From: Chthonomonadales bacterium
GTDB taxonomy: Bacteria > Armatimonadota > Chthonomonadetes > Chthonomonadales > Chthonomonadaceae
DNA: 30,543 bases
Reading direction: 5' to 3'
NCBI GenBank assembly: GCA_038217285.1
Contig: JBBQPO010000036.1
Coordinates: 1-30,543 of the forward strand
Shown: positions 1-30,295 of the stretch, piece by piece
How positions within the stretch are numbered: position 1 is the first letter of the stretch
Layout: every line of letters starts with the position of its first letter
Notes under the pieces: model-generated
The model's input: the letters and a program-made list of their open reading frames with translations, nothing else
Told to the model about the DNA's origin: nothing
Database searches by the model: none
Translations under genes and position numbers: made by a program

Positions 1-169
1 GAATTTATAGAGAGTTGGGTACAGCCCGTTCGCTGTTCCAAAGTGCCATAAATTCCTGGCAAAACTTTCGGGAAATGCTTTTTGATCTCATTTGCCTTCG
101 ATTAGGCCGCGTTTGAAGGTTCAATTTAGTCTAAACGTCAATCGGGAAAGGACAAGGTTTAACTTCGCT

Positions 170-667
170 ATGATGAAGAAAGTCGCTAAACCTATATACA
201 TTCCACTTGGGCAGAATTTTCTTGCCGTTACGTTTCTCTTTGCTGCCTGTGCTAAGTGGATACAGTTAGGCGATTTTGTCGGTACATTAACCGCTTCAGG
301 ATTAGTCCCTTTGTCGCTGGCTCCCTTGCTCGCCATGCTAATCGTAGTGTTGGAGTTGTTTGCCGGGATAGGATTGCTTATACGCTCCTTGCGCGTGCAA
401 GCCTTAACTATTCTTCTCGTACTTCTTCCTCTCTTTTTGTTCTATTCGATCTGGAGACAGGTTCAGCATATAGAAGTACCTTGCAACTGCTTCGGCGCCA
501 TATTCAAAATCTCTCCCATGCAATCGATCCTATTTAATATCGGTTTACTGGGTCTAACGGTTTTGCTATTGAAGTCGCAGCGCCACATCCCTATAGACGG
601 GAAACCTGACCAGGGCAATTCGGAGCCTACGCTTGCTGATACGATCCCTGAATCTCAAAAAATGTAG
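170..667 (+). CDS. MauE/DoxX-family redox-associated membrane protein
   Basis: Four hydrophobic segments with F..A...K, 'VVLELFAGIGLL', 'PCNCFG' (MauE-type CGCFG motif) and 'SILFN'. Start placed at ATG 170 rather than TTG 92. Confidence 0.8.
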   Translation: MMKKVAKPIYIPLGQNFLAVTFLFAACAKWIQLGDFVGTLTASGLVPLSLAPLLAMLIVVLELFAGIGLLIRSLRVQALTILLVLLPLFLFYSIWRQVQHIEVPCNCFGAIFKISPMQSILFNIGLLGLTVLLLKSQRHIPIDGKPDQGNSEPTLADTIPESQKM

Positions 668-792
668 AATGCCCTTCCATCAGGCGCGCCCGTCTACGTC
701 AGCCCGGTGATATGGTTGCAGAAAGCTGTTCACACGGTTTCGAGTTTCTAGACAGAACTTGGCGTTGTCGTGCTTGGGAGAGGGAACCGAAC

Positions 793-1632
793 GTGAAAAA
801 ATATACTGTACTACCTGCTGCAATTTCCGTCTGTCTTGCCATGGCGATGTTGGCAGTCTATAGCAATCAATCCCGCTCGCCAAGGATCGAACCCCAGCCG
901 ACTTCTGCACCTATGACAACGCAAGTTGCCGTAATAAATCGTTTCTCGTTCGAGCCGTTGGGAGAGGCCGATGCCAATCTGGAGATCGCGAAACGCTTCA
1001 AAGTCGTGCTGCATACCAAACTGTCCAAACACGAGTACACGCAGCTGATGCAGTCTTTCAGCGCTTTGCTGACCGTCTTTTATAAGCACGACTTTCCGGC
1101 GTTCAAACAGGCGGTCATAGAGCGGCATGGAACGCCTTCGGCAGTTTGGTCGGCAGGCGTCGCATCATTAGGGATATTCCACGAGCCTGATCACCTGCCG
1201 GGGTCAGCGAAATCCCTCTTTAATCTATCGCAACCTTGGCCTCCGAAAGACAACTGGATAACGATCCAAGCATGGTGGGCTGCGCGTTACGATCAAGGGG
1301 GGGTGTGGAAAGGGGTCCAGATGGCCGACGCGCAGATTGAAATCTTAGAGCAGACAGGTGAACCGTCCCGTGCCGACCAGGACGCATTCGCCGCCAAAGT
1401 CGCGAAAGATGCGCCGATCCGTTTGTTTCAAGACAATCATTTCTTTGCTCCGGAACAAGGCAAGGCAAAATACGCCGTCGTCTACTTTGTGGCCGAACAT
1501 CAGGGAGGTGATCCCATATTCCCGCTTTTTCTCTGGTTTAGATGGGATAAGGCGGTAGACAACTGGATTTTGGATAAGGCCGCTCAGTCTTACTCTGCAG
1601 ATAGAAGCAGCCACTGTGATCTCATATTGTGA
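793..1632 (+). CDS. Exported hypothetical protein, paralog of 4922-5719
   Basis: GTG 793 follows GGGAGAGGG and gives MKKYTVLPAAISVCLAMAMLAVY (signal or anchor). Aligns by eye with 4922-5719 (HDF.AFK, WW..RY..GGVWK, KAKYA.VY, RWDKAVDNWILD, HCDL). Confidence 0.8.
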   Translation: MKKYTVLPAAISVCLAMAMLAVYSNQSRSPRIEPQPTSAPMTTQVAVINRFSFEPLGEADANLEIAKRFKVVLHTKLSKHEYTQLMQSFSALLTVFYKHDFPAFKQAVIERHGTPSAVWSAGVASLGIFHEPDHLPGSAKSLFNLSQPWPPKDNWITIQAWWAARYDQGGVWKGVQMADAQIEILEQTGEPSRADQDAFAAKVAKDAPIRLFQDNHFFAPEQGKAKYAVVYFVAEHQGGDPIFPLFLWFRWDKAVDNWILDKAAQSYSADRSSHCDLIL

Positions 1633-1664
1633 GGCTGCCAGACCGCATTTAAGGAAGTATTCTG

Positions 1665-2732
1665 ATGCCAGTACCAGCAAAGCTGACCCTGCCTTTAGCT
1701 ATTATGCTAACCGCTCCTTTCGCAATCGCGGCCTTTCTCGCTGCCACCAGCTTCCACCAGAAACAGGTTCCCGTGGGCGTTCGCAGGAATCTATGGCAGG
1801 ACGGCGTCCTCGCGCGTGGTGAGAGCCGCCGGCACCAAACGGTGCTGTACAATACTACCGATCATCCAGTACACATTGCACACTTCGTCGTTACCCCCGG
1901 TGCTACGTTAGCATTTGAAAAACGTGATATTCCTGCGCACGGAGAGGTGAGCGTCTTTTTCGGTGCCAAGCCGGACAGCAAAGGTAAGAACTGGCTGTGT
2001 GGTTCAGACATCTATCTGGACGGCTACCTGGACCCGATTACCCTGAAAGCTTACGGAAGTATTATTGACCTGGCTCCAGCGGTCGTTGACGCTGGAGAGA
2101 TATACCTCGCGAAGGAAAAACTCCTCTCGTTTCCCTTGCAGTCTCGTAACGGCAACGCTTTGCGTGTATATCGAGCGGTCTACGATGCAAAGCGTCTTGA
2201 GGTTAAAGTAGCCGCTGGTAAGTTGGGGAGCGAGGCGCAAATACGCGTATTGCCGATAGATACTCCAGGGAAATTCGCAGCGACGGTGACGCTCACAACG
2301 GACGATAAGTTGTTTCCCGAAGTCACGACGCAAATTGTTGGACGATGCCTGCCGCATGTTGTCGCGAGTCCCGATATACTCTCGCTGGGTGTGTTCTCCA
2401 GTCTAGAACAGGCCGAAGCGACGATCTCGCTTCGGTCACCATACGGCAAACCATTCACCGTTCGTCGTGTTACTATCGTGCCGGCGGAAGCGTTGCAAGT
2501 CATCGGCCCACCGCATCCTGTGGCTGACGGCTATGCGCTGCGTGTCGCTTTGAAGAACGGTACAGCAGGGATATCGCTCGACGCCAGAGTATTCATCGAG
2601 ATTGTGGTAGACGGCAGTCGGAAGCCAGAGACTGTGAACATTCCCGTCTATGGCCTCTATCTGCCGCTTCAAAAGGAGGCGATCCGAGCTCCAGCAACCC
2701 TGTCCTTCGGCGCATCTCCCAATAACCCATAA
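1665..2732 (+). CDS. DUF1573-like multi-Ig-domain exported protein
   Basis: N-terminal hydrophobic segment. 'LYNTTDHPVHIAHF...IPAHGEVSV' resembles the DUF1573 pattern, followed by beta-rich repeats ('GKFAATVTLTTDD', 'SPDILSLG'). Confidence 0.6.
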   Translation: MPVPAKLTLPLAIMLTAPFAIAAFLAATSFHQKQVPVGVRRNLWQDGVLARGESRRHQTVLYNTTDHPVHIAHFVVTPGATLAFEKRDIPAHGEVSVFFGAKPDSKGKNWLCGSDIYLDGYLDPITLKAYGSIIDLAPAVVDAGEIYLAKEKLLSFPLQSRNGNALRVYRAVYDAKRLEVKVAAGKLGSEAQIRVLPIDTPGKFAATVTLTTDDKLFPEVTTQIVGRCLPHVVASPDILSLGVFSSLEQAEATISLRSPYGKPFTVRRVTIVPAEALQVIGPPHPVADGYALRVALKNGTAGISLDARVFIEIVVDGSRKPETVNIPVYGLYLPLQKEAIRAPATLSFGASPNNP

Positions 2733-2764
2733 ATATGCACCTTCATGTAGAATGGCGGAATACT

Positions 2765-3592
2765 ATGCAGCGAAACGTCAATCGAAGGAGAGTATACGTC
2801 GGCTTTACACTTATCGAGGTGCTCGTCGTCATTGCGGTGATTGCGATCCTTGCGGGGCTGATATTCCCCATGTTCGCCAGCGCACGCGGCAAGGCGCGGG
2901 AAGCAACCTGTCTCTCCAATCAGAAGCAGATACTGCAAGCATTGACGCTGTACACAGGCGACTATGATGAGCATATCTTTCCATCCCAGTCGCTGCCGCC
3001 AATCAACGGAGGCAATGAAATCGCCGAAACGCCCTATGAGACGTTCCTTGTTCCCTATCTAAGAAGTTATGCGGTGTATGCCTGCCCGGCGGACAGTGTG
3101 CTGCGCGTGGACGACCTGCTCTGGGATGGCAGTTTCCGCAACAAACTGCTGAAGCGTTCCTATGCCGTCTCTTCAAGCCTTGCCACACAGCACAGTATGC
3201 TCGACCCCAACGCCGGCATCGTCACCTATGCCGGTGTGGCGCTGTCCGGTATTCACGAGCCAGCCAACACGATCGGTCTCTCAGAAAACTGGGGAGCTCA
3301 ACAGGGAGCGAAGGCTGCGGGAAGCAATAATGTCATCGGTTCTCAGCAGGGTGCCTATATCTATGCCTGTGAAACCTGGGCACTCCCCGGTCGCAATATT
3401 CCACCGCATAACGCTGACGACCTGTTTCCTCCCTGCGCCGACTACTACACCGATCCCATGTACATCCCAGCGCGGGGGCATCAGAAAGGAGGCATCTATG
3501 GCTTCCTGGACGGTCATGTCAAACTCCTCTCCTGGTCGCAAGCAAGGGCCGGAGATTTCTGGTTATTTAAGCGCAGTAAACCCAATCTTTAA
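2765..3592 (+). CDS. Prepilin-type N-terminal cleavage/methylation protein with H-X9-DG C-terminal motif (DUF1559-like)
   Basis: G|FTLIEVLVVIAVIAILAGLIFPMFASARGKAREATCLSNQKQ, Y.CP.D, and H-QKGGIYGFL-DGHVK. Confidence 0.92.
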   Translation: MQRNVNRRRVYVGFTLIEVLVVIAVIAILAGLIFPMFASARGKAREATCLSNQKQILQALTLYTGDYDEHIFPSQSLPPINGGNEIAETPYETFLVPYLRSYAVYACPADSVLRVDDLLWDGSFRNKLLKRSYAVSSSLATQHSMLDPNAGIVTYAGVALSGIHEPANTIGLSENWGAQQGAKAAGSNNVIGSQQGAYIYACETWALPGRNIPPHNADDLFPPCADYYTDPMYIPARGHQKGGIYGFLDGHVKLLSWSQARAGDFWLFKRSKPNL

Positions 3593-3657
3593 GCAGTGTC
3601 ATGTCCGCAGGGTTTTACAGCACGTTTTGGCGCGAATGCGCTGAATATCCCAGTCGA

Positions 3658-3666
3658 AAGGAGGTG
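3658..3666 (+). promoter_or_regulatory. Near-perfect Shine-Dalgarno for the Cys-rich peptide gene
   Basis: AAGGAGGTG ends 6 nt before ATG 3673. Confidence 0.8.
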
Positions 3667-3672
3667 AACAAG

Positions 3673-3897
3673 ATGACAATTTCCAAACGGAGCCGAATGC
3701 TAGGTGGTCTCGCCGCGTTCTGGACAGTGATGGGGGTGGCGGCGGCCACCTATTCCTGGGCAGCGGTGTCTAGTCAGCACTGTCGGGCTGATTGCAGCGG
3801 CGGATCCTGTAGTATCAACTGCAACAATCCGTCGTTCCCGATGTGTGGCTGTGGTTCTGACGGCGTACCGCACTGCGTATGCCAGCCGGGCCCATAA
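3673..3897 (+). CDS. Small secreted cysteine-rich peptide (74 aa; about 44-aa mature part with 8 Cys)
   Basis: Strong RBS. Sec-like signal MTISKRSRMLGGLAAFWTVMGVAAATYSWA, then AVSSQHCRADCSGGSCSINCNNPSFPMCGCGSDGVPHCVCQPGP. Confidence 0.85.
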   Translation: MTISKRSRMLGGLAAFWTVMGVAAATYSWAAVSSQHCRADCSGGSCSINCNNPSFPMCGCGSDGVPHCVCQPGP

Positions 3898-4039
3898 CTG
3901 TAGCCATACTGGCTCACAGCGACTACGGTGAAATAATCTACTGTATCCGCACGAATGTGCAACAGCGGATCGGGGAGCGCCTCCGATGTAAGCGTTCCCT
4001 ATCCGTCTTTAAAAGACGCGCCGCACCTGCTAAATATAA

Positions 4040-4909
4040 ATGCTTTCTCGCTTCCGACAAATCACCCATATACGACTATGGCTGCCAGTCTTGGCGGTAG
4101 GTGTCATTCTCCTGATGCTGGCCTTGGCGCTGCGAAAGTATCAGGGTGGGTCTCACACGCGCCACTGTCTTTCCAACCTCCACCAGCTTGGGCAAAGTCT
4201 GGCTCTCTACGCACAAGATTACGACCAGTGCTGGCCTGCTATCACTCACAGTCCTGCGATCCGCGGTGGGATCCTCTCCGGGACCGAAACGCCCACCGTT
4301 CCATATACATTTCAGCTCGAACCCTATATACATGACGAATCGCTCTATGCCTGTCCGGAGGACAATGTGCCGCGCAAAGAAGGGGAGCTATGGGATGGGC
4401 GCTATAAAGGAAAGCTTTTGAAGCGGTCCTATGCGCTGACAGGCCCCATCGTCACCCAGCAGGCCGCTGGTGCTGCCGGCCAAGATAAGAGTACCAGTGC
4501 CTTTGAGTATGTGGCCTATCAACAAAAGAAATACGACCGCAACACAGGCATCGCAGGACGCTCATTCGCCAGTGCAGACAATCCCGCCCAAACGATCGCT
4601 CTGGTGGAGAATTGGGGCTACCGCAACAGTGTGCTGGATGGTGAACTAAGTAATGCTGTCCTGGGATCTAACTGGAAGGATGTCCTCTTTGGCTGTGATA
4701 CCGCCTCTCTGCCCGGACGCCGTATTCCAGCGGAAAACGAGGTAGATCGGTTCGCGCCCTGCACATCGGTTTATGATGACCAGCATAACATCCCCGCGCA
4801 GGGACATGCAGATGTCGGAAACTATCTCATGGCGGACGGGCACGTCGAGTCGCTGCAATGGACGCAGGCGCGTGAAGCAGATTTTCAGCGATTCAAGCTT
4901 CATAAGTGA
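4040..4909 (+). CDS. H-X9-DG C-terminal motif protein (DUF1559-like) lacking the prepilin cleavage site; paralog of 2765-3592
   Basis: TM segment, then CLSNLHQLGQSLALYAQDYD, LYACPED, LWDG..K.KLLKRSYA, ENWG, and H-ADVGNYLMA-DGHVE. Confidence 0.88.
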   Translation: MLSRFRQITHIRLWLPVLAVGVILLMLALALRKYQGGSHTRHCLSNLHQLGQSLALYAQDYDQCWPAITHSPAIRGGILSGTETPTVPYTFQLEPYIHDESLYACPEDNVPRKEGELWDGRYKGKLLKRSYALTGPIVTQQAAGAAGQDKSTSAFEYVAYQQKKYDRNTGIAGRSFASADNPAQTIALVENWGYRNSVLDGELSNAVLGSNWKDVLFGCDTASLPGRRIPAENEVDRFAPCTSVYDDQHNIPAQGHADVGNYLMADGHVESLQWTQAREADFQRFKLHK

Positions 4910-4921
4910 GGAGAACAGTCC

Positions 4922-5719
4922 ATGTATCGAAACCCTCTGAGACAGAACAGCCAGGCTGTTTTTATTGTCAGCCTGCTGTGTGCGCTGGGTTTTGCACAAA
5001 GCACGGCGGGCCAACACTTGGCTCCGAAGCCTCTGATTCCATTGGGAACACCAGCGCAGAACCGAGTATTCATCAATCGCCTGAAAACCGTTTCCAAAGT
5101 TTCCCTGACCCCGCATGAGCAGGCCCGGTTGAAGCAGACGCTCTCCGAAGTTCTGACCCTGTATACCACACATGATTTTGACGCTTTCAAGCGATTCATG
5201 ACCTCTCGCAAAGGTGTACCAGAGGCGCAGTGGGTGAAAGGCATCCGCACGGTTCCCATCGTGCGGGATCGGGAAAAGCAACCCGCACCCGCCCGCAATC
5301 TGATCGCGCGCCTTCACTCCTGGCCTGCCGTGAGTGACTGGGACACCCTCCACGTTTGGTGGGTGGGAAGATACGCTGCAGGCGGCGTCTGGAAAAGCGC
5401 AGATGTGACAAGCGCTTTTTTACAAGTCTATGAGCGAGCGGAAGAGCCGGACGAAGACGAAGCCCGCATGATCGCCCCTAGAGCGTTTTCCAATCCGAGC
5501 AAGAGCATGATGTTTCAAATTAATCACTTCTTTCCATCGGCCACCACCAAGGCGAAATACGCGGCGGTTTACGTTGTAGCGCAGCCTCAAGGCAGCGATC
5601 CGGTTTTCCCCCGACTTATCTGGCTGCGCTGGGATAAGGCTGTGGATAATTGGATTTTAGACCGGGGGGCGCAACCTTACACGGGTGAACGCAGTGCGCA
5701 CTGTGACCTCCTGTTTTAA
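4922..5719 (+). CDS. Exported hypothetical protein, paralog of 793-1632
   Basis: GAGGAG RBS and signal-like AVFIVSLLCALGFAQSTA. Shares blocks with 793-1632, including RWDKAVDNWILD and terminal HCDLLF. Confidence 0.82.
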   Translation: MYRNPLRQNSQAVFIVSLLCALGFAQSTAGQHLAPKPLIPLGTPAQNRVFINRLKTVSKVSLTPHEQARLKQTLSEVLTLYTTHDFDAFKRFMTSRKGVPEAQWVKGIRTVPIVRDREKQPAPARNLIARLHSWPAVSDWDTLHVWWVGRYAAGGVWKSADVTSAFLQVYERAEEPDEDEARMIAPRAFSNPSKSMMFQINHFFPSATTKAKYAAVYVVAQPQGSDPVFPRLIWLRWDKAVDNWILDRGAQPYTGERSAHCDLLF

Positions 5720-5760
5720 GAGCACCCCGAATTGAGGCCCGTTTGCGGGCGGGGGGTTTG

Positions 5761-7233
<1,473 letters not shown>

Positions 7234-7259
7234 CGTCCATTACTCCTACAGGTCGGCTG

Positions 7260-10200
7260 TCAGCCTTTGGTGATCGTTTCGTCCAGATTGAGCAGGACAC
7301 TGGCGACGGTCGTCCAGGCGGCCAGATCCGTGGTGTCCAGCGAAGCGTCCCGCGCCGATTCGCCGATGGCGAGCAGTTGCTTTGCGCCGGGCGGGTCGCG
7401 GCGGAAGACCACCGCCTGCCGGTTGAACAGCCCGAGCATGGTTTCGATCTCGGCGGCCCTCGGTTTGCGCCCCATCGCCAGTCGATAGGCGTAGGCGATA
7501 TGCTGTTCCGGAGTCGTGCCTCCCTCTTTCATGATGCGTTCGGCGAGCTTACGGGACGCCTCCACATAGGTCGGGTCGTTCATCAGTGTGAGGGCCTGGA
7601 GAGGCGTGTTGGTGACAGAGCGACGCACCAGACAGAACTCGCGCTCCGGCGCATCGAACGCCTGCAGGGAGGGCGGCGGACAGGTACGCTTCCAGAAGGT
7701 GTACATGCCGCGCCGATAGAGGTTTTCGCCGTGATCCTGCACATAGGTCTGCGCAGAGAAGCTGCCGCCGAAGGCGAGCTCTTCCCACAGTCCGGCGGGC
7801 TGATAAGGGTGTACGGACGGCCCGCCGACCTTCTCCACCAGCAGTCCACTGACCGCCAGCGCCTGATCGCGGACGAACTCGCCCTGGAGTCGGAACCGCG
7901 CTCCCCGTGCCAGCAGCCGGTTCTCCGGGTCGCGCTCTTTCAGGGCGGGCGTCACTTTGGAAGACTGTCGGTAGGTCGCCGAGGTGACGATCAGCCGCAG
8001 CAGCGCCTTCGTATCCCAGCCAGTACGAATGAATTCGGTGGCCAGCCAGTCGAAAAGCTCCGGATGGGAGGGCCGTTCGCCCTGCGTTCCGAAATCCTCC
8101 GCCGTCTTGACGAGTCCCGTCCCAAACAGCATCTGCCAGGTGCGATTGACGGCGACGCGGGCGGTCAGCGGGTGCGAGGGATCGACCAGCCAGCGCGCCA
8201 TGGTCAGACGATTCGCCGGGCCGGGCGGCAGCGGCGGCAGGAAGTCCGGCGTACCGGCGAATACCTTCTCGCCGGGCTTGTCGTACTGCCCGCGTTGCAG
8301 AATGAAGGTGTCACGCGGCTTGTCCATCTCCTGCATCACCATGGTGGTCGGAATGGATTTATCGATGACATCCCGCGCGCTCTGCGCGGCAGCAAGATCG
8401 GCGCTGAGGCGGCGATACGGCTCGTCCTGGGCGCTGAGATAGTAGGTTGCCAGCCGGGTGCGCTGTTCCGGTGTGCGCTTCTCTTCAGAGGTAGCGAGAA
8501 CCTGGCGCAGGGTGTCGAAATCCGCGATCTGCTGCACCTCGTCCGCGCTGACCTGACGCCGGTAGATACGAATCGCCTCGATCATTCCCTTGAAGGGGGC
8601 CGCAATACTGCGCCTGCCAATACGCAGCGGAACCGTTGTTTGAATCGAGCCAGTCAGAGAGTCGTGGGTCATGTCCAGCGGGGCAGGTTTGCCGTTGACA
8701 TAGATCGTGATGCCCTTCGCCTTGCTGGAGCCATCGTAGGTAACGAAGAGATGCGTCCATTTGTTGGCTTCGAGGACCGGCTTCGTGTTGACGCGGATCG
8801 CGTTCTTGTCCCAGGCATGAATCAGGTGTACATACACCTGACCACCGCTGATATAGAGGTCGAAACCGCGAAAGTCGGCACTGTCGTCCATGCGGGAGAG
8901 CACCGTCATCGCCTCCGTAGAGGCGGGATTTACCCATGCGCCATAAGAAAATTTATCGCTGCGCTCGAACCCGATTTTGGTCCCGAGGTCGGCGGTGGTA
9001 GCGCCATCGAGCGCCAACACCGGCCCGAACCGACCCGGCGACCAGGCTGGCTTGCCCGTGAGGGCGACGACAGGGATCGTGCCGGAGGTGTCGTGAAGAT
9101 CTGCGCCCTGTCCCTCGTTCAGACGATAGTACGCCGCCAGTCCATTCGTCACGGGAGCCATCGCGTCCGGAGTGACTGTCATCGCCTTCATCCAGGCGGC
9201 AAGCGCGGGCTGCGCTTCGGCAGTCCGGGTCTTCAGGGCCTGTTGTGCGGCTGCGAGTTTCCCCTCCGCCGCTTCCAGTTGCGCCTTCTGAGCGGCGTCC
9301 GGCGCTTTCAAAAAGGGAACGGCATTGCCTGCCGAGCCATCCAGCCCCTGCTCCGATACGTTGTGGAAGAGCGCGAAGAAACGGTAGTAGTCCTTCTGGG
9401 TGACCGGATCGTACTTGTGGTCGTGGCACTGCGCGCAGCGCATGGTCAGGCCCATAAAGGCGGTCGCGGTCGTGTCGATGCGATCAACGATATAGGCGGT
9501 GGCATACTCTTCAGGAATCGCGCCGCCCTCGAAGTTGATGGGATGATTACGGTTGAACCCGGAGGCGATGCGCTGATCGAGCGTGGGGTTCGGCAGAAGA
9601 TCGCCCGCCAACTGCTGCACGACGAACTGGTCGTAGGAGAGGTTTTTGTTGTACGCCTCGATGACCCATTCGCGCCACCGCCACATATCGCGCTGGCTGT
9701 CGATATGAAAGCCGTGCGTGTCGGCATAGCGGGCGAGATCGAGCCAGGAGACCGCCATGCGCTCGCCATAATGGGGACTTGCCAGCAGCCGATCCACAAC
9801 CCTGTCATAGGCGTCCTTACCGGCGTCATGGACGAAGGCGTCTACTTCCGCCGGGGTTGGCGGCAGTCCGGTCAGGTCGAAACTCAGGCGGCGAATCAGG
9901 ATACCGCGCTCCGCTTCCGGAGAGGGTTTCAGGCCCTCCTTCTCCAGACGCGCCAGGATAAAACGGTCGAGTGGATTTTTCGCCCAGGCTGTATTCCGAA
10001 CCGTCGGTACGGCAGGACGCTTCGGCGTGACAAATGCCCAGTGGGCATCGTATTTGCCTCCCTGCATGATCCACTGCTTCAGGACGACGATCTGCGCGGG
10101 CGTCAGTTTTTTGCCGGTGCTGACCGGCGGCATGTGCAGCGCCCCACCTGCCAGCACCCGCTGCATGAGGGCGCTAGCGCCGGGGTTCCCCGCGACGATC

Positions 10201-10481
10201 GCGTGTCCTCCGCTGCTGAGCGCCTTGACGGCCCCCTCCGCCGTATCGAGACGCAGGCCAGCTTGCCGCTGATTCGGATCGAACCCGTGGCATTTGTAGC
10301 AGTTCTCCGACAGAATCGGGCGCACATCGCGATCATAATCCACTCGCATCGGGACGCTGCCTGCCTTCACCCTCTGACCAGGCTTTGCACCGGGCGGCGC
10401 AGCCTGCGCACTGCCTCCCGCCAATGCTAAACCCAACCATACCCAACCGAACGTCCGAAAGAGTGCCTGGGAACCTTGCAT
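7260..10481 (-). CDS. Planctomycete cytochrome c (PSCyt1)/DUF1549/LamG/DUF1553 protein
   Basis: RDVRPILSENCYKCHG, HWAF, YGERMA.SWLDLARYADT, CAQCHDHKYDP, a LamG-like insert (WTHLFVTYDG), DFGTQGERPSHPELFDWLA and TNTPLQAL.LMND. Confidence 0.93.
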   Translation of the reverse strand: MQGSQALFRTFGWVWLGLALAGGSAQAAPPGAKPGQRVKAGSVPMRVDYDRDVRPILSENCYKCHGFDPNQRQAGLRLDTAEGAVKALSSGGHAIVAGNPGASALMQRVLAGGALHMPPVSTGKKLTPAQIVVLKQWIMQGGKYDAHWAFVTPKRPAVPTVRNTAWAKNPLDRFILARLEKEGLKPSPEAERGILIRRLSFDLTGLPPTPAEVDAFVHDAGKDAYDRVVDRLLASPHYGERMAVSWLDLARYADTHGFHIDSQRDMWRWREWVIEAYNKNLSYDQFVVQQLAGDLLPNPTLDQRIASGFNRNHPINFEGGAIPEEYATAYIVDRIDTTATAFMGLTMRCAQCHDHKYDPVTQKDYYRFFALFHNVSEQGLDGSAGNAVPFLKAPDAAQKAQLEAAEGKLAAAQQALKTRTAEAQPALAAWMKAMTVTPDAMAPVTNGLAAYYRLNEGQGADLHDTSGTIPVVALTGKPAWSPGRFGPVLALDGATTADLGTKIGFERSDKFSYGAWVNPASTEAMTVLSRMDDSADFRGFDLYISGGQVYVHLIHAWDKNAIRVNTKPVLEANKWTHLFVTYDGSSKAKGITIYVNGKPAPLDMTHDSLTGSIQTTVPLRIGRRSIAAPFKGMIEAIRIYRRQVSADEVQQIADFDTLRQVLATSEEKRTPEQRTRLATYYLSAQDEPYRRLSADLAAAQSARDVIDKSIPTTMVMQEMDKPRDTFILQRGQYDKPGEKVFAGTPDFLPPLPPGPANRLTMARWLVDPSHPLTARVAVNRTWQMLFGTGLVKTAEDFGTQGERPSHPELFDWLATEFIRTGWDTKALLRLIVTSATYRQSSKVTPALKERDPENRLLARGARFRLQGEFVRDQALAVSGLLVEKVGGPSVHPYQPAGLWEELAFGGSFSAQTYVQDHGENLYRRGMYTFWKRTCPPPSLQAFDAPEREFCLVRRSVTNTPLQALTLMNDPTYVEASRKLAERIMKEGGTTPEQHIAYAYRLAMGRKPRAAEIETMLGLFNRQAVVFRRDPPGAKQLLAIGESARDASLDTTDLAAWTTVASVLLNLDETITKG

Positions 10482-27781: not shown

Positions 27782-27841
27782 ACCTGAAGAGTAATGTTCG
27801 TTAGGGCGCGTTCGCGCCTGAATTTAAACCTGAATAGAATT

Positions 27842-30295
27842 ATGAGTAACCGAAACATCCTTAATCGCATAGACCCATTGCGCTCGTCCCGGTGTCCTAC
27901 CGGTGTTGAAAGTCGTCTGAAACGCAGTTCCGTGCTGTTGCTCTCCGGCCTGTTGCCGACGGGCCTGCTGATCTATGCCGCCACGTTGCCCACGGTAAGC
28001 GCCGCCGTCCCGCCGAAGTCGAAGCAGGCTTCTGCAAACGCGATGGCTTCTGCGGCCGGAGGCTTCGAAACGGAAGTCGCGCCTCTGATGCGCAAGTACT
28101 GTCTTAGCTGTCACAGCGGACCGAACCCGTCCGGCGGCGTCAATGCGGATAAGGACAAAACCACCGCATCTGTCATTAAAAACCGCAGCACCTGGGAAAA
28201 CATCTCACGCAATATCAGCGACAGCCACATGCCGCCGGCAAGTGCGCCACAGCCGACGGTCGCCGAGCGCGACCGAATCACACACTGGGTGGAGGGAACG
28301 TTTACTAAAGCCGACTGCGCCCTCCACGATCCGGGCCGCATTACGCTGCGCCGTCTCAACCGCGAAGAGTACAACAACACGGTGCGAGATCTGTTCGGGA
28401 TGGATATTCGGCCCGCCGACAGTTTCCCCTCCGACGATGTCGGCTACGGGTTCGACAACATCGGAGACGTGCTTTCGCTGTCGCCGCTGTTGATGGAGAA
28501 GTATCTCAACGCCGCCGAAAAGGTCGTACAGACCGCGATTTTGACGCCGGAAGAGGCCAACAAGCCCATTCGCATTCCTGCGGCCACGATGCAGCACAGC
28601 CTGCAAGGATCGGCCTACAACGGCAATGGGTTTCTGCTCAGCACGAATGGGGATGTGCACACCGAGTACGAGGTTCCCCGAGAGGGCGAATATACGATCC
28701 GCGTCAACGCCGCCCAGCAGCAGGCCGGACCCGAGAACGCCAAGATGGTGCTGCATGTCGATGACCAGGCGGTCTTTACCTTCGATGTCGCGGCGCAGGA
28801 GCGTAATCCGCGTTCCTACGAACTGCCGATGCGGCTGAAGGTCGGCAAACATCGCTTTGCGATGGAGTTCACCAACGACTTCTATGACGTTAAACAGCCC
28901 CAGGGCAAGCAGGACCGCAATCTGGTCGTCAACTATCTCGAACTGGTCGGACCGCCCGGGATGCCGAAGGATCTGCCCGCGTCCCACCGGCGCATCCTCT
29001 TCTGCCAGCCGTCGGCGACTCTCAGTCAGGACGCGGCTGCCCGCAAGATCCTGACGGCCTTCGCGACGAAAGCCTATCGCCGCCCGGTCACCACGCCGGA
29101 AGTGGATCGCCTGCTGACATACGTACATCTGGCGGAGAAGCAGGGCGAGAGCTTCGAGGGCGGGATTCGCGTGGCGGTCGAAGCCGTTATGGTCAATCCG
29201 AACTTCCTGTTCCATGTGGAGCTCGACCCGAAGCCGAACGAGAAATCGAGCGCCCGGTATCTGACCGACTATGAGCTGGCGGCGCGCCTCTCCTACTTCC
29301 TGTGGAGCAGCACCCCCGACGACGAGCTTACCACGCTCGCCGCAAAAGGTCAACTGCAGAACAGCAAGATGCTGGAAGCGCAGGTAAAGCGCATGCTCAA
29401 AGACCCGAAGGCGCGGGCCCTGGGCCAGAACTTCGCGGGCCAGTGGCTGCAACTGCGGAACCTTTCGCAGGTCCGCCCCGATACCGGCCGCTTCCCGGAC
29501 TGGAACGACAAACTCCGGGTCGCGATGAAGACCGAAACCGAGATGTTCTTCAACGCCATTGTGAGCGAAGATCGAAACCTGCTGGACTTTATCGACGCGA
29601 AATATACCTTCCTGAATGAGCCGCTGGCGAAACACTACGGTATTGCCGGTGTGACCGGCGACAACTTCCGCCGCGTCGTGCTCGAAGGCGATCAGCGCGG
29701 CGGCCTGCTGACCCAGGCGAGTATTCTGACCGTGACCTCGAACCCGACCCGGACTTCGCCGGTCAAACGCGGTAAGTGGGTGCTGGACAATCTGCTCGGC
29801 ACGCCGCCGCCGCCGGCTCCGCCGAACGTGCCGAAACTGGCCGACGACAACCATGCTATGCTGGTAGGTACCCTGCGGCAGCGCATGGAGAAACATCGCA
29901 GCAACCCGGCCTGCGCGTCGTGCCACGCCCGTATGGACCCCCTGGGGTTCGGGCTGGAAAACTTCGATGCGACCGGTGGCTGGCGCACGAAAGACGGCGA
30001 TGCAGCCGTGGACTCGTCCGGTACGCTGCCGGGTAATGTCTCCTTCAACGGCCCCGCACAGTTGAAGGCGATCCTGAAAACCAAGAAGACCCTGTTCGTT
30101 CACTGCCTGACCGAAAAGATGATGACCTACGCCCTCGGGCGTGGCATCGAACACTACGACCGCTGTAATATCGATGCCATGGTAAAGACGGTAGCGCAGA
30201 ACGACTACAAGTTCTCGGCGCTGATAAATGCAATCGTGGAAAGTGAGCCCTTCCGCAAACGGCGAGGGGACGATGGAGGCTTAGCAACTCGATGA
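27842..30295 (+). CDS. Planctomycete-type cytochrome c protein (PSCyt1, DUF1587, CBM-like, DUF1595, DUF1592, DUF1588, DUF1585)
   Basis: CLSCH, LRRLNREEYNNTVRDL, GFDN, FTND...DRNL (CBM60-like), YELAARLSYFLWSSTPD, TSPVKRGKW and CASCH..MDPLGFGLENFD. Confidence 0.93.
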   Translation: MSNRNILNRIDPLRSSRCPTGVESRLKRSSVLLLSGLLPTGLLIYAATLPTVSAAVPPKSKQASANAMASAAGGFETEVAPLMRKYCLSCHSGPNPSGGVNADKDKTTASVIKNRSTWENISRNISDSHMPPASAPQPTVAERDRITHWVEGTFTKADCALHDPGRITLRRLNREEYNNTVRDLFGMDIRPADSFPSDDVGYGFDNIGDVLSLSPLLMEKYLNAAEKVVQTAILTPEEANKPIRIPAATMQHSLQGSAYNGNGFLLSTNGDVHTEYEVPREGEYTIRVNAAQQQAGPENAKMVLHVDDQAVFTFDVAAQERNPRSYELPMRLKVGKHRFAMEFTNDFYDVKQPQGKQDRNLVVNYLELVGPPGMPKDLPASHRRILFCQPSATLSQDAAARKILTAFATKAYRRPVTTPEVDRLLTYVHLAEKQGESFEGGIRVAVEAVMVNPNFLFHVELDPKPNEKSSARYLTDYELAARLSYFLWSSTPDDELTTLAAKGQLQNSKMLEAQVKRMLKDPKARALGQNFAGQWLQLRNLSQVRPDTGRFPDWNDKLRVAMKTETEMFFNAIVSEDRNLLDFIDAKYTFLNEPLAKHYGIAGVTGDNFRRVVLEGDQRGGLLTQASILTVTSNPTRTSPVKRGKWVLDNLLGTPPPPAPPNVPKLADDNHAMLVGTLRQRMEKHRSNPACASCHARMDPLGFGLENFDATGGWRTKDGDAAVDSSGTLPGNVSFNGPAQLKAILKTKKTLFVHCLTEKMMTYALGRGIEHYDRCNIDAMVKTVAQNDYKFSALINAIVESEPFRKRRGDDGGLATR

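Follow-up and report, generated by a model that had tools for sequence, protein, structure and literature searches.

A contig from a Chthonomonadales bacterium of the Armatimonadota (JBBQPO010000036.1, hereafter C36; assembly GCA_038217285.1) begins with a block of seven genes (positions 170 to 5719) that includes representatives of what, to judge from database and literature searches, are two previously unannotated protein families. The first is a small exported protein with eight cysteines, which we refer to as the peptide or mini-protein, and the second is a membrane-anchored protein termed X, which is present here in two copies (X1 and X2). The window that we analyzed is the whole stretch of 30,543 nucleotides from the start of C36, and it belongs to a 6.2-Mb genome that is 95% complete. 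The explanation we favor, to which we give an even chance of being correct, is that the block is an accessory cassette subject to lateral movement, that its core pairs a Sec-exported mini-protein with membrane-anchored X, and that it provides dedicated oxidative folding. As defined by gene neighborhoods, the conserved unit is the peptide together with X, often accompanied by a DUF1573/ASH-type protein, rather than the seven-gene set.

The peptide-X pair

The key feature of this system is the strict adjacency of its two core genes. Among the 27 X loci that we examined (9 genome loci and 18 metagenome loci), all have a leader-bearing, cysteine-rich open reading frame (ORF) adjoining X. The eight-cysteine motif is intact in 23 of these, a single cysteine codon is changed in two (L068 and L070), and the remaining two (G313 and G286) exhibit a pattern of 13-14 cysteines. 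A similar result can be observed among sampled genomes, which were drawn from the Armatimonadota. The peptide profile yields strong matches (E<=1.6e-18) in 6 of 401 genomes of the phylum, exactly the 6 that also have strong X matches, and 15 other matches to the profile are marginal (E 0.0025-0.009). Furthermore, each of the 15 distinct peptide homologs adjoins X.

The peptide of the window comprises 74 amino acids and starts at an ATG (position 3673) located six bases behind a strong ribosome-binding site, AAAGGAGGTGA. An N-terminal hydrophobic leader is followed by ~42 residues containing eight cysteines with the spacing C-x3-C-x4-C-x3-C-x7-C-x-C-x7-C-x-C. This motif occurs once in a six-frame translation of the whole 6.2-Mb genome. 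Separately, a scan of a genome-contig collection with the alignment A1 yielded no relative. Across seven aligned peptides, which represent five or more family-level lineages, all eight cysteines are invariant, as are G44, S45, and G64. Of the 8 genome-locus peptide genes examined, 7 have a strong Shine-Dalgarno sequence ahead of the start, the exception being that of G080; the peptide start of G205, examined separately, has a weaker AAAGGAA-like site. When seven peptides were scanned against Pfam at E<=10, no meaningful family and no epidermal growth factor (EGF) domain emerged, and the best match among PDB sequences was a weak one to the EGF domain of thrombomodulin (E 0.32), which leaves EGF-like membership without a significant match in either search. 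The peptide profile added one extra protein from a set of 5.8 billion proteins; the yield is this low because short peptides are seldom significant in such a set and are often not called as genes. The two loci with a changed cysteine codon harbor near-identical copies of the peptide, the one at L068:~1060 having a TGA at the position of the first cysteine and the one at L070:~4480 having Arg in place of the second. This TGA might reflect a pseudogene mutation or a variant in sequencing, and it is a matter of speculation whether it could encode selenocysteine.

X1 and X2 are 41% identical over 226 residues (E 4e-66), and both contain one N-terminal hydrophobic segment and a C-terminus of the form HCDL(I/L)(L/F). 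The HCD ending is found in all seven close X sequences and in none of the ten full-length distant ones in the alignment. The ortholog in G019, another genome of the family, makes GTG 793 the probable start of X1. Neither protein belongs to a Pfam or NCBIfam family, a search of PDB sequences with X gave nothing significant (E 0.83), PADLOC had no match for any of the seven proteins of the block, and no description of the peptide or X was found in the literature searched on the associated families and Fervidibacter. Relatives of X are scarce, with 4 in the 5.8-billion-protein set and 17 at E<=1e-3 among 1.84 billion representatives. With its own genome counted, X is present in 3 genomes out of 42 in the family, in 5 out of 68 in the order, and in 8 out of the 401 sampled from the phylum, and it is absent from all four other genomes of the genus (73-98% complete). 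The X proteins of the examined loci form 11 clusters at 70% identity. Since their invariant residues are Trp, Tyr, Arg, and Pro, which are not of the catalytic type, a binding protein would fit better than an enzyme. X2 has no entry in the Atlas, and searches of the Atlas with two X relatives gave weak leads (scores 0.80-0.89, TM <0.4) to NTF2-like families, namely DUF4864, DUF3828, DUF4878, DUF4440, and MlaC, none of which were relied upon.

It also appears that the pair is lost as a unit. The metagenome loci L084-L087 have kept their usual neighbors, contain no peptide gene, and encode only the last ~29 residues of X, a remnant that is located directly 5' of a DUF2079 gene and that in L084-L086 reads ...GNWFLDVAGMDFS.... 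These fragments look like deletion scars of the peptide-X pair, and it is the absence of the peptide together with the survival of a mere X remnant that argues for joint loss. Base composition is informative as well. The guanine-cytosine (GC) content of the block is 0.537 versus 0.604 for the genome, and among 4025 genome windows of 5.55 kb, 1.2% have a GC content as low, i.e. the block is AT-richer than 98.8% of equal-length windows. GC at third codon positions (GC3) is 0.51-0.64 in the genes of the block and 0.76-0.80 in the next two genes, and in all six other loci tested, the core is likewise lower in GC than its flanks. Considering the low GC of this and the six other cores, the absence of X from the four same-genus genomes, and its presence in just 5 of the 68 genomes of the order, the cassette is apparently accessory, laterally moving, and rare in the Armatimonadota.

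MauE, D, and the pilin-like genes of the block

In the ORF list of the window, the seven ORFs of the block are co-oriented on the + strand with spacings of 2 to 142 nucleotides (nt), and they follow the order MauE, X1, D, pilin1, peptide, pilin2, X2 (Table 1). Hydropathy analysis places a hydrophobic segment, N-terminal or internal, in each of the seven products. An initial annotation, made from the letters of the window, had described seven co-oriented and closely spaced genes, an AT-rich block, and products that are all membrane-targeted or exported, and these descriptions are borne out by the ORF list, by the base composition given above (GC3 included), and by the hydrophobic segments, respectively. 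Its assignment of MauE and its recognition of X1 and X2 as a duplicated HCDL pair have held up equally well. It had further remarked upon the lack of radical SAM, YcaO, and Lan enzymes and judged that the block does not look like a classical system for a ribosomally made and post-translationally modified peptide (RiPP). We concur, as none of these domains occur in the 22 window proteins scanned (a set that leaves aside the smaller ORFs), and no such modifying enzyme was found among the scanned neighbors in related loci. A different outcome awaited its suggestion that the cluster might extend upstream of base 1. There is probably no such extension, because the orthologous cluster of G019 begins at MauE and the only contig that can be joined, C90, carries unrelated genes (ankyrin, DUF5722, and GFO/IDH).

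Table 1. Features of the block, with positions counted from the first base of the window
Feature	Positions	Strand	Basis
MauE-family membrane protein, 165 aa	170..667	+	PF07291 74.9 bits; four hydrophobic segments; PCNCFG motif
X1, membrane-anchored, new family, ends HCDLIL	793..1632 (ORF open from 712)	+	41% identity to X2; G019 ortholog in same position
D, N-terminal membrane helix and three predicted ASH/DUF1573-type Ig-like domains	1665..2732	+	Model, Foldseek, orthologs
Pilin-like protein 1, GFTLIE prepilin motif, H-X9-DG, 4 Cys	2735..3592	+	N_methyl, TIGR02532, weak DUF1559
Peptide gene, 74-aa precursor, Sec-type leader and ~42-aa mini-protein, eight Cys	3673..3897 (ORF open from 3601)	+	Shine-Dalgarno/ATG, alignment
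Structured intergenic region 3' of peptide gene	3898..4039	+	RNA fold z-score -2.89
Pilin-like protein 2, H-X9-DG, uncleaved-type membrane helix	4040..4909	+	TIGR04294 19.0 bits; pilin1 paralog
X2, second X-family copy, signal-peptide-like N-terminus, ends HCDLLF	4922..5719	+	Paralogy to X1; absent from G019 cluster

Beyond the window, the order MauE, X1, D, pilin1, peptide, pilin2 was found in one other genome only. G019 encodes these six genes in the identical order at 69-75% DNA identity and without X2, and its flanks differ from those of the window, consisting of a DUF2961 gene and a xylose-isomerase-like gene.

The MauE of the cassette far exceeds the PF07291 cut-off of 27 bits, spanning model positions 8-126 of 128, and its CXC-FG site is intact between the third and fourth of its hydrophobic segments; its G019 ortholog has PCSCFG at the equivalent site. 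According to a preprint, MauE proteins representing two phyla can stand in for DsbB in E. coli, and both cysteines of the MauE CXC motif are needed, the motif being followed by a conserved Phe-Gly and located in the loop between helices 3 and 4 (10.64898/2026.03.05.709764). In the cassette protein, a Lys is present in the first hydrophobic segment and a Glu in the second, as seen by eye and not by alignment to the proteins tested in that preprint. No other protein of the genome matches MauE over the family cut-off, a VKOR homolog is present (78 bits), and a search of the genome for DsbB found none. Because the genome already has VKOR, a dedicated role is more likely than a housekeeping one, and it is plausible that MauE represents an extra, cassette-borne disulfide source rather than the sole housekeeping oxidant.

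MauE passes its cut-off in 9 of the 42 family genomes, and we inspected five MauE loci in family genomes that lack X (L032, L033, L034, L036, and L037). Three of these (L032, L033, and L037) encode MauE followed by another leader-bearing protein with 8-10 cysteines (122-168 amino acids), L034 encodes MauE followed by a MauD-like thioredoxin (TIGR02661, 36 bits, which is under its cut-off), and L036 is cut by a contig end. Within the Chthonomonadaceae, MauE would appear to move as a cassette whose cysteine-rich client varies. Among X loci, L024, L025, and L066 encode a CxxC thioredoxin-like protein ahead of the peptide, and it appears that related loci have either CGC-containing DUF1573 proteins or CxxC thioredoxin-like proteins in the redox role of MauE.

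Two of the labels in the initial annotation have been sustained in part. D had been called DUF1573-like, and a direct Pfam match, including to PF07610, is lacking at E<=0.1, but the DUF1573 nature of D does emerge via its orthologs and a structural model. Homologs that match the D profile at 1e-25 to 1e-153 pass the PF07610 cut-off of 26.1 bits (L023, 62.8; L020, 40.7; L021, 39.4; L014, 26.3), with that of L023 also matching an NCBIfam (seleno)protein family. The model (predicted local distance difference test, pLDDT, 79.1) contains a helix at residues 9-29 and three strand-only beta-sandwich domains, and its best Foldseek matches in the PDB are ciliary central-pair chains of ASH-type immunoglobulin (Ig) domains (E 3e-15). 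With orthologs that pass PF07610 and a model that exhibits the fold, D is predicted to be a membrane-anchored chain of three ASH/DUF1573-type Ig-like domains. At the CGC position of the first Ig-like domain, the window and G019 both have PGA, L014 has GCC, and L023, L020, and L021 have CGC. A table in PMC9312934 includes DUF1573 among selenoprotein families and gives its motif as UGC, and a redox role for CGC would fit with this occurrence. Of the 9 genome loci, 6 have a full-length D next to the pair. Fervidibacter-like loci encode shorter ASH/DUF1573-like proteins of weak similarity, one with CGC, and an hhalign comparison of D with the 144-amino-acid protein of L025 (SCGCT) was not significant (E 0.021).

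The second such label is that of an H-X9-DG pilin pair. Pilin1 and pilin2 are indeed paralogs (37% identical, E 1e-55) and are mutual best matches within the genome (1e-48 versus 3e-23 for the next paralog). Pilin1 has a prepilin motif, matching N_methyl (22.8 bits, cut-off 21.2) and TIGR02532 (25 bits, cut-off 16.3), and a C-terminal H-X9-DG motif that was seen by eye only. Pilin2, however, lacks the prepilin cleavage/methylation motif. It has no N_methyl match and, where the motif would be expected, a plain membrane helix, its G019 ortholog is likewise without one, and its TIGR04294 score lies at the cut-off of 19. Both proteins fall below the DUF1559 cut-off of 23.3 bits (20.4 for pilin1 and 17.5 for pilin2). 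Pilin-like genes occur in 8 of the 27 X loci, and rough arithmetic gives a chance expectation of fewer than 1 in 10 loci. We regard this excess as moderate only, because the H-X9-DG pilin-like family has 30-93 copies per genome.

The 142 nt between the peptide and pilin2 genes are predicted to be structured, as 1 of 200 shuffles folds as well, and a hairpin is located directly after the peptide stop codon. This region may serve as a partial terminator or attenuator that sets the ratio of peptide to downstream transcript. An Rfam scan of positions 1-6200 returned no match, and a promoter and terminator scan of the block found nothing above shuffles and no promoter-like site on the + strand. No RNA dataset was found to contain the block, the sole dataset with it being a sediment metagenome run, which may represent the source sample.

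In related loci, the pair keeps different company. DUF2079 is encoded in 13 of the 27 X loci, mostly 17-22 nt after X, and genomes hold 0-4 copies of it. In three loci, a Wzy_C-GT51 fusion directly follows X instead (L024:1609-3762, L025:19-1698, and L066:3119-5317), and the distance from X to the following DUF2079 (e.g. L073, L076, L078, and L080) or fusion gene is 12-33 nt. The fusions are large membrane proteins that join an O-antigen-ligase-type Wzy_C domain to a GT51 peptidoglycan transglycosylase domain. Within the Fervidibacter-like clade, a related clade that includes Candidatus Fervidibacter canadensis, GT2 is encoded directly upstream of the peptide gene. Across the X loci, a GT2 gene is often found ahead of that for the peptide, and sigma-70 region-4 proteins as well as arrays of small T2SSF and HEAT proteins are frequent. 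Tandem arrays of up to five ~200-amino-acid proteins, each with one T2SSF-type domain and HEAT repeats, can be found beside such sigma-70 region-4 proteins (L026, L067, L070, L074, L075, L080, L084, and L085).

The remainder of the window contains housekeeping and planctomycete-type genes that are unrelated to the cassette. Positions 5761-10481 and 27794-30295 encode a DUF1501 and PSCyt/DUF1549/DUF1553 gene pair as well as a PSD/PSCyt3 multidomain protein. PSCyt/DUF1501-type families were first described in the Planctomycetes, and here they are found in a genome of the Armatimonadota. At the very start of the window, positions 1-141 consist of a dispersed repeat. It matches 17 further segments that are spread over 11 other contigs and in many cases located at contig ends, and some of its copies are adjacent inverted partial copies. 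The start of C90 is the exact reverse complement of this repeat. The assembly probably broke at this repeat, and the overlaps, 141 bases in length, resemble assembler k-mer overlaps.

A proposed folding pathway and its alternatives

The pathway that we favor would begin with export of the precursor by Sec and removal of its leader. Four disulfides would then be introduced, with the oxidizing power presumably supplied by the cassette MauE in the DsbB-like, quinone-linked manner that is suggested by the activity of its family in E. coli; in related cassettes, CGC-containing DUF1573 proteins or CxxC thioredoxin-like proteins would take this redox role. X would bind, hold, or present the mini-protein, once folded, on the outer side of the cytoplasmic membrane, a role suggested by strict co-occurrence, adjacency, and joint loss. 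D and the two pilin-like proteins would be lineage-specific envelope accessories and possibly further clients of MauE. The site of action of the mini-protein would be placed at the cell envelope. The initial annotation had proposed all seven genes as a system for the oxidative folding and the display or delivery of a disulfide-rich mini-protein. A unit handling an exported disulfide-rich mini-protein, with MauE as its plausible dedicated oxidant, is retained from that proposal, but the seven-gene set is not the conserved unit.

Several observations weigh against the explanation we favor. The census of X neighborhoods that the initial annotation had called for upheld the cysteine-rich ORF throughout, but it recovered pilin-like genes in the minority of loci stated above and MauE in only 2 of 27 (the window and G019). 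MauE therefore stands outside the conserved core, and its role could be a general one in the genome. In the window, the CGC motif is missing from D, and three genomes that have the pair (G205, G080, and G114; 93-100% complete) are without D altogether. The peptide homolog in G205 (L024:532-681) has the full eight-cysteine core and lacks a hydrophobic leader that can be recognized. The ORF that encodes it overlaps, in a different frame, with the end of that for the thioredoxin-like protein, and the leaderless form may be an assembly frameshift or a degenerate copy. In addition, the loci recovered by the peptide and X profiles are the ones from which these profiles had been made, so the independent information in their agreement is that no further genome has one partner alone. 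Many of the metagenome loci are also near-duplicates, and, as metagenome contigs are short or near-duplicate, missing neighbors mean little.

Two alternatives take the peptide-X pair as the functional unit and assign it another purpose. The pair could be a Sec-dependent bacteriocin with its immunity protein, in which case the mini-protein would be a secreted antimicrobial and X, duplicated here, would protect the producer membrane. Such a system would account for a small exported peptide gene directly beside that of a membrane-anchored protein at all 27 loci, for the tandem peptide paralogs in L071, for the patchy distribution, low GC, and differing flanks, and for the gain and loss of the pair as a unit. 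However, no ABC transporter was seen in any locus, nor was a C39 peptidase or a gene for double-glycine processing, many lineages have a peptide core that is near-neutral or acidic, and there is no similarity to bacteriocin families in Pfam or NCBIfam. As for the features of class II bacteriocins, a Sec-type leader is present and an exporter was seen in no locus. Furthermore, the pair is mostly embedded in envelope glycan genes rather than standing alone, and we consider a bacteriocin unlikely. The same embedding raises the prospect that the mini-protein is an acceptor or regulator for lipid-linked-glycan membrane enzymes, that X presents it to them, and that the enzyme partner has been replaced or lost in the lineage of the window. 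The close spacing of X with DUF2079 or Wzy_C-GT51 genes and the position of GT2 upstream of the peptide both point in this direction, as does the frequency of DUF2079 next to X despite its few copies per genome. Residue composition does so as well. Ser plus Thr make up 0.36-0.46 of the non-cysteine core residues in the peptides of L014, L023, L026, L073, L076, and L080, where DUF2079 adjoins the pair, versus 0.12-0.19 in the ten remaining core sequences of the listing (from 9 loci, as L071 contributes two peptides), the window included; the peptide of L077, of unknown gene context, also lies within the higher range. This pattern may indicate that the peptide is a glycosylation acceptor in DUF2079-linked lineages. 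Yet the clusters of the window and G019 are without such an enzyme and encode peptides poor in Ser/Thr, no activity has been assigned to DUF2079, for which no mention was found in the literature searched, and L084-L087 retain GT2/DUF2079 without the pair, which argues that these enzymes have another job. A glycan role of this kind is likewise unlikely in our estimation. A more general formulation, which we hold to be rather unlikely, is that the peptide and X form a hitherto unrecognized extracytoplasmic module that plugs into differing lipid-linked-glycan enzymes (GT2 and DUF2079, or Wzy_C-GT51) depending on the Armatimonadota lineage, with the mini-protein as O-glycosylated product or as a regulator of how envelope glycans are assembled, and that the variant in the window has swapped its glycan enzyme for MauE and pilin-like proteins. 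If a glycan role were true, DUF2079 would gain its first substrate.

The remaining alternatives fare worse. The initial annotation had envisaged display or delivery of the mini-protein by the H-X9-DG pilin-like proteins on a pseudopilus, which would agree with the pilin-like genes flanking the peptide in the window and G019 and recurring at other X loci, with the T2SSF and HEAT arrays of Fervidibacter-like loci, and with the prepilin peptidase that the genome encodes. It is made quite improbable by the missing prepilin motif of pilin2 and its ortholog, by a window without a secretion ATPase, secretin, or full platform gene, by a pilin copy number at which some chance adjacency is expected, and by the pilins of other loci, which match pilin1 at 1e-19 to 1e-21 and are thus no closer to it than generic paralogs (3e-23 within the genome). 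A periplasmic metal-binding peptide, akin to a metallothionein or chalkophore with cysteines that bind copper or zinc, is the least supported of the readings of the mini-protein's function and is very improbable. Eight invariant cysteines with C-x-C and C-x3-C spacing would suit it, as would the His-Cys-Asp ending of X1 and X2, but that ending is limited to the closest X subfamily, no locus contains a metal transporter or sensor, and the MauE, CxxC thioredoxin-like, and CGC proteins encoded at these loci speak for thiol oxidation. Lastly, it is scarcely credible that there is no system at all and that unrelated genes for exported proteins lie together by chance. Only the peptide-X pair is universal, and MauE, D, and the pilins do vary between loci; however, the universal peptide-X adjacency and the reciprocal matches in 6 of 401 genomes speak against coincidence, which is already contradicted by the six-gene synteny with G019 despite different flanks.

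Relation to known systems

Should the dedicated folding of the mini-protein prove correct, the cassette would be a clean example of MauE-type oxidative folding of small exported cysteine-rich proteins, a dedicated process that is only now being recognized. The two unannotated families are always found together, and they reside in operons with poorly understood envelope enzymes such as DUF2079 and the Wzy_C-GT51 fusions. The pair may thus help to reveal what DUF2079 does, and likewise what is done by DUF1573 proteins that have a redox CGC/UGC motif. Experiments are conceivable, because the genus of Candidatus Fervidibacter canadensis has a cultured member.

Several known systems invite comparison. 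Sublancin-type glycocin operons encode their own thiol-disulfide oxidoreductases, BdbA and BdbB, and the parallel lies in an exported, disulfide-containing peptide with dedicated disulfide-forming proteins, as well as in the glycosyltransferases of related loci. In contrast to the double-glycine leader and ABC/C39 exporter of sublancin, the leader in the cassette is of the Sec type, X has no counterpart there, and the glycosyltransferases of the related loci are of the membrane lipid-carrier type (GT2 and DUF2079, or Wzy_C-GT51). Pilin O-glycosylation employs GT-C (TfpW) or Wzy_C-type (PilO/PglL) enzymes, and related loci similarly combine pilin-like genes, Wzy_C or large polytopic proteins, and GT2. 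Here the window lacks these enzymes, DUF2079 is without an assigned activity, and the link to the peptide is positional only.

Other parallels concern MauE itself. MauE, together with MauD, matures MauA, the disulfide-rich small subunit of methylamine dehydrogenase. Like mauE/mauD and MauA, the cassette encodes a MauE-family protein beside a small exported cysteine-rich client, and L034 pairs MauE with a MauD-like thioredoxin. Unlike the methylamine dehydrogenase system, the cassette is without MauA, MauB, MauD, and MauG, and its client belongs to a new eight-cysteine family with an obligatory partner, X; a search of the genome for MauA gave no match, but the search control also gave none. As a candidate DsbB-like generator of disulfides, the MauE of the cassette resembles the proteins described in the preprint (10.64898/2026.03.05.709764) in having its CXC motif, with F-G directly after it, in the loop that joins helices 3 and 4. 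It differs from them in being an extra copy that is encoded in a low-GC cassette of a genome already equipped with VKOR. The logic of oxidative folding is already known from mauE/mauD and MauA, as well as from other operons that pair a peptide with a thiol oxidoreductase dedicated to it, and what is new is the conserved pairing of a client, the peptide, with its partner, X.

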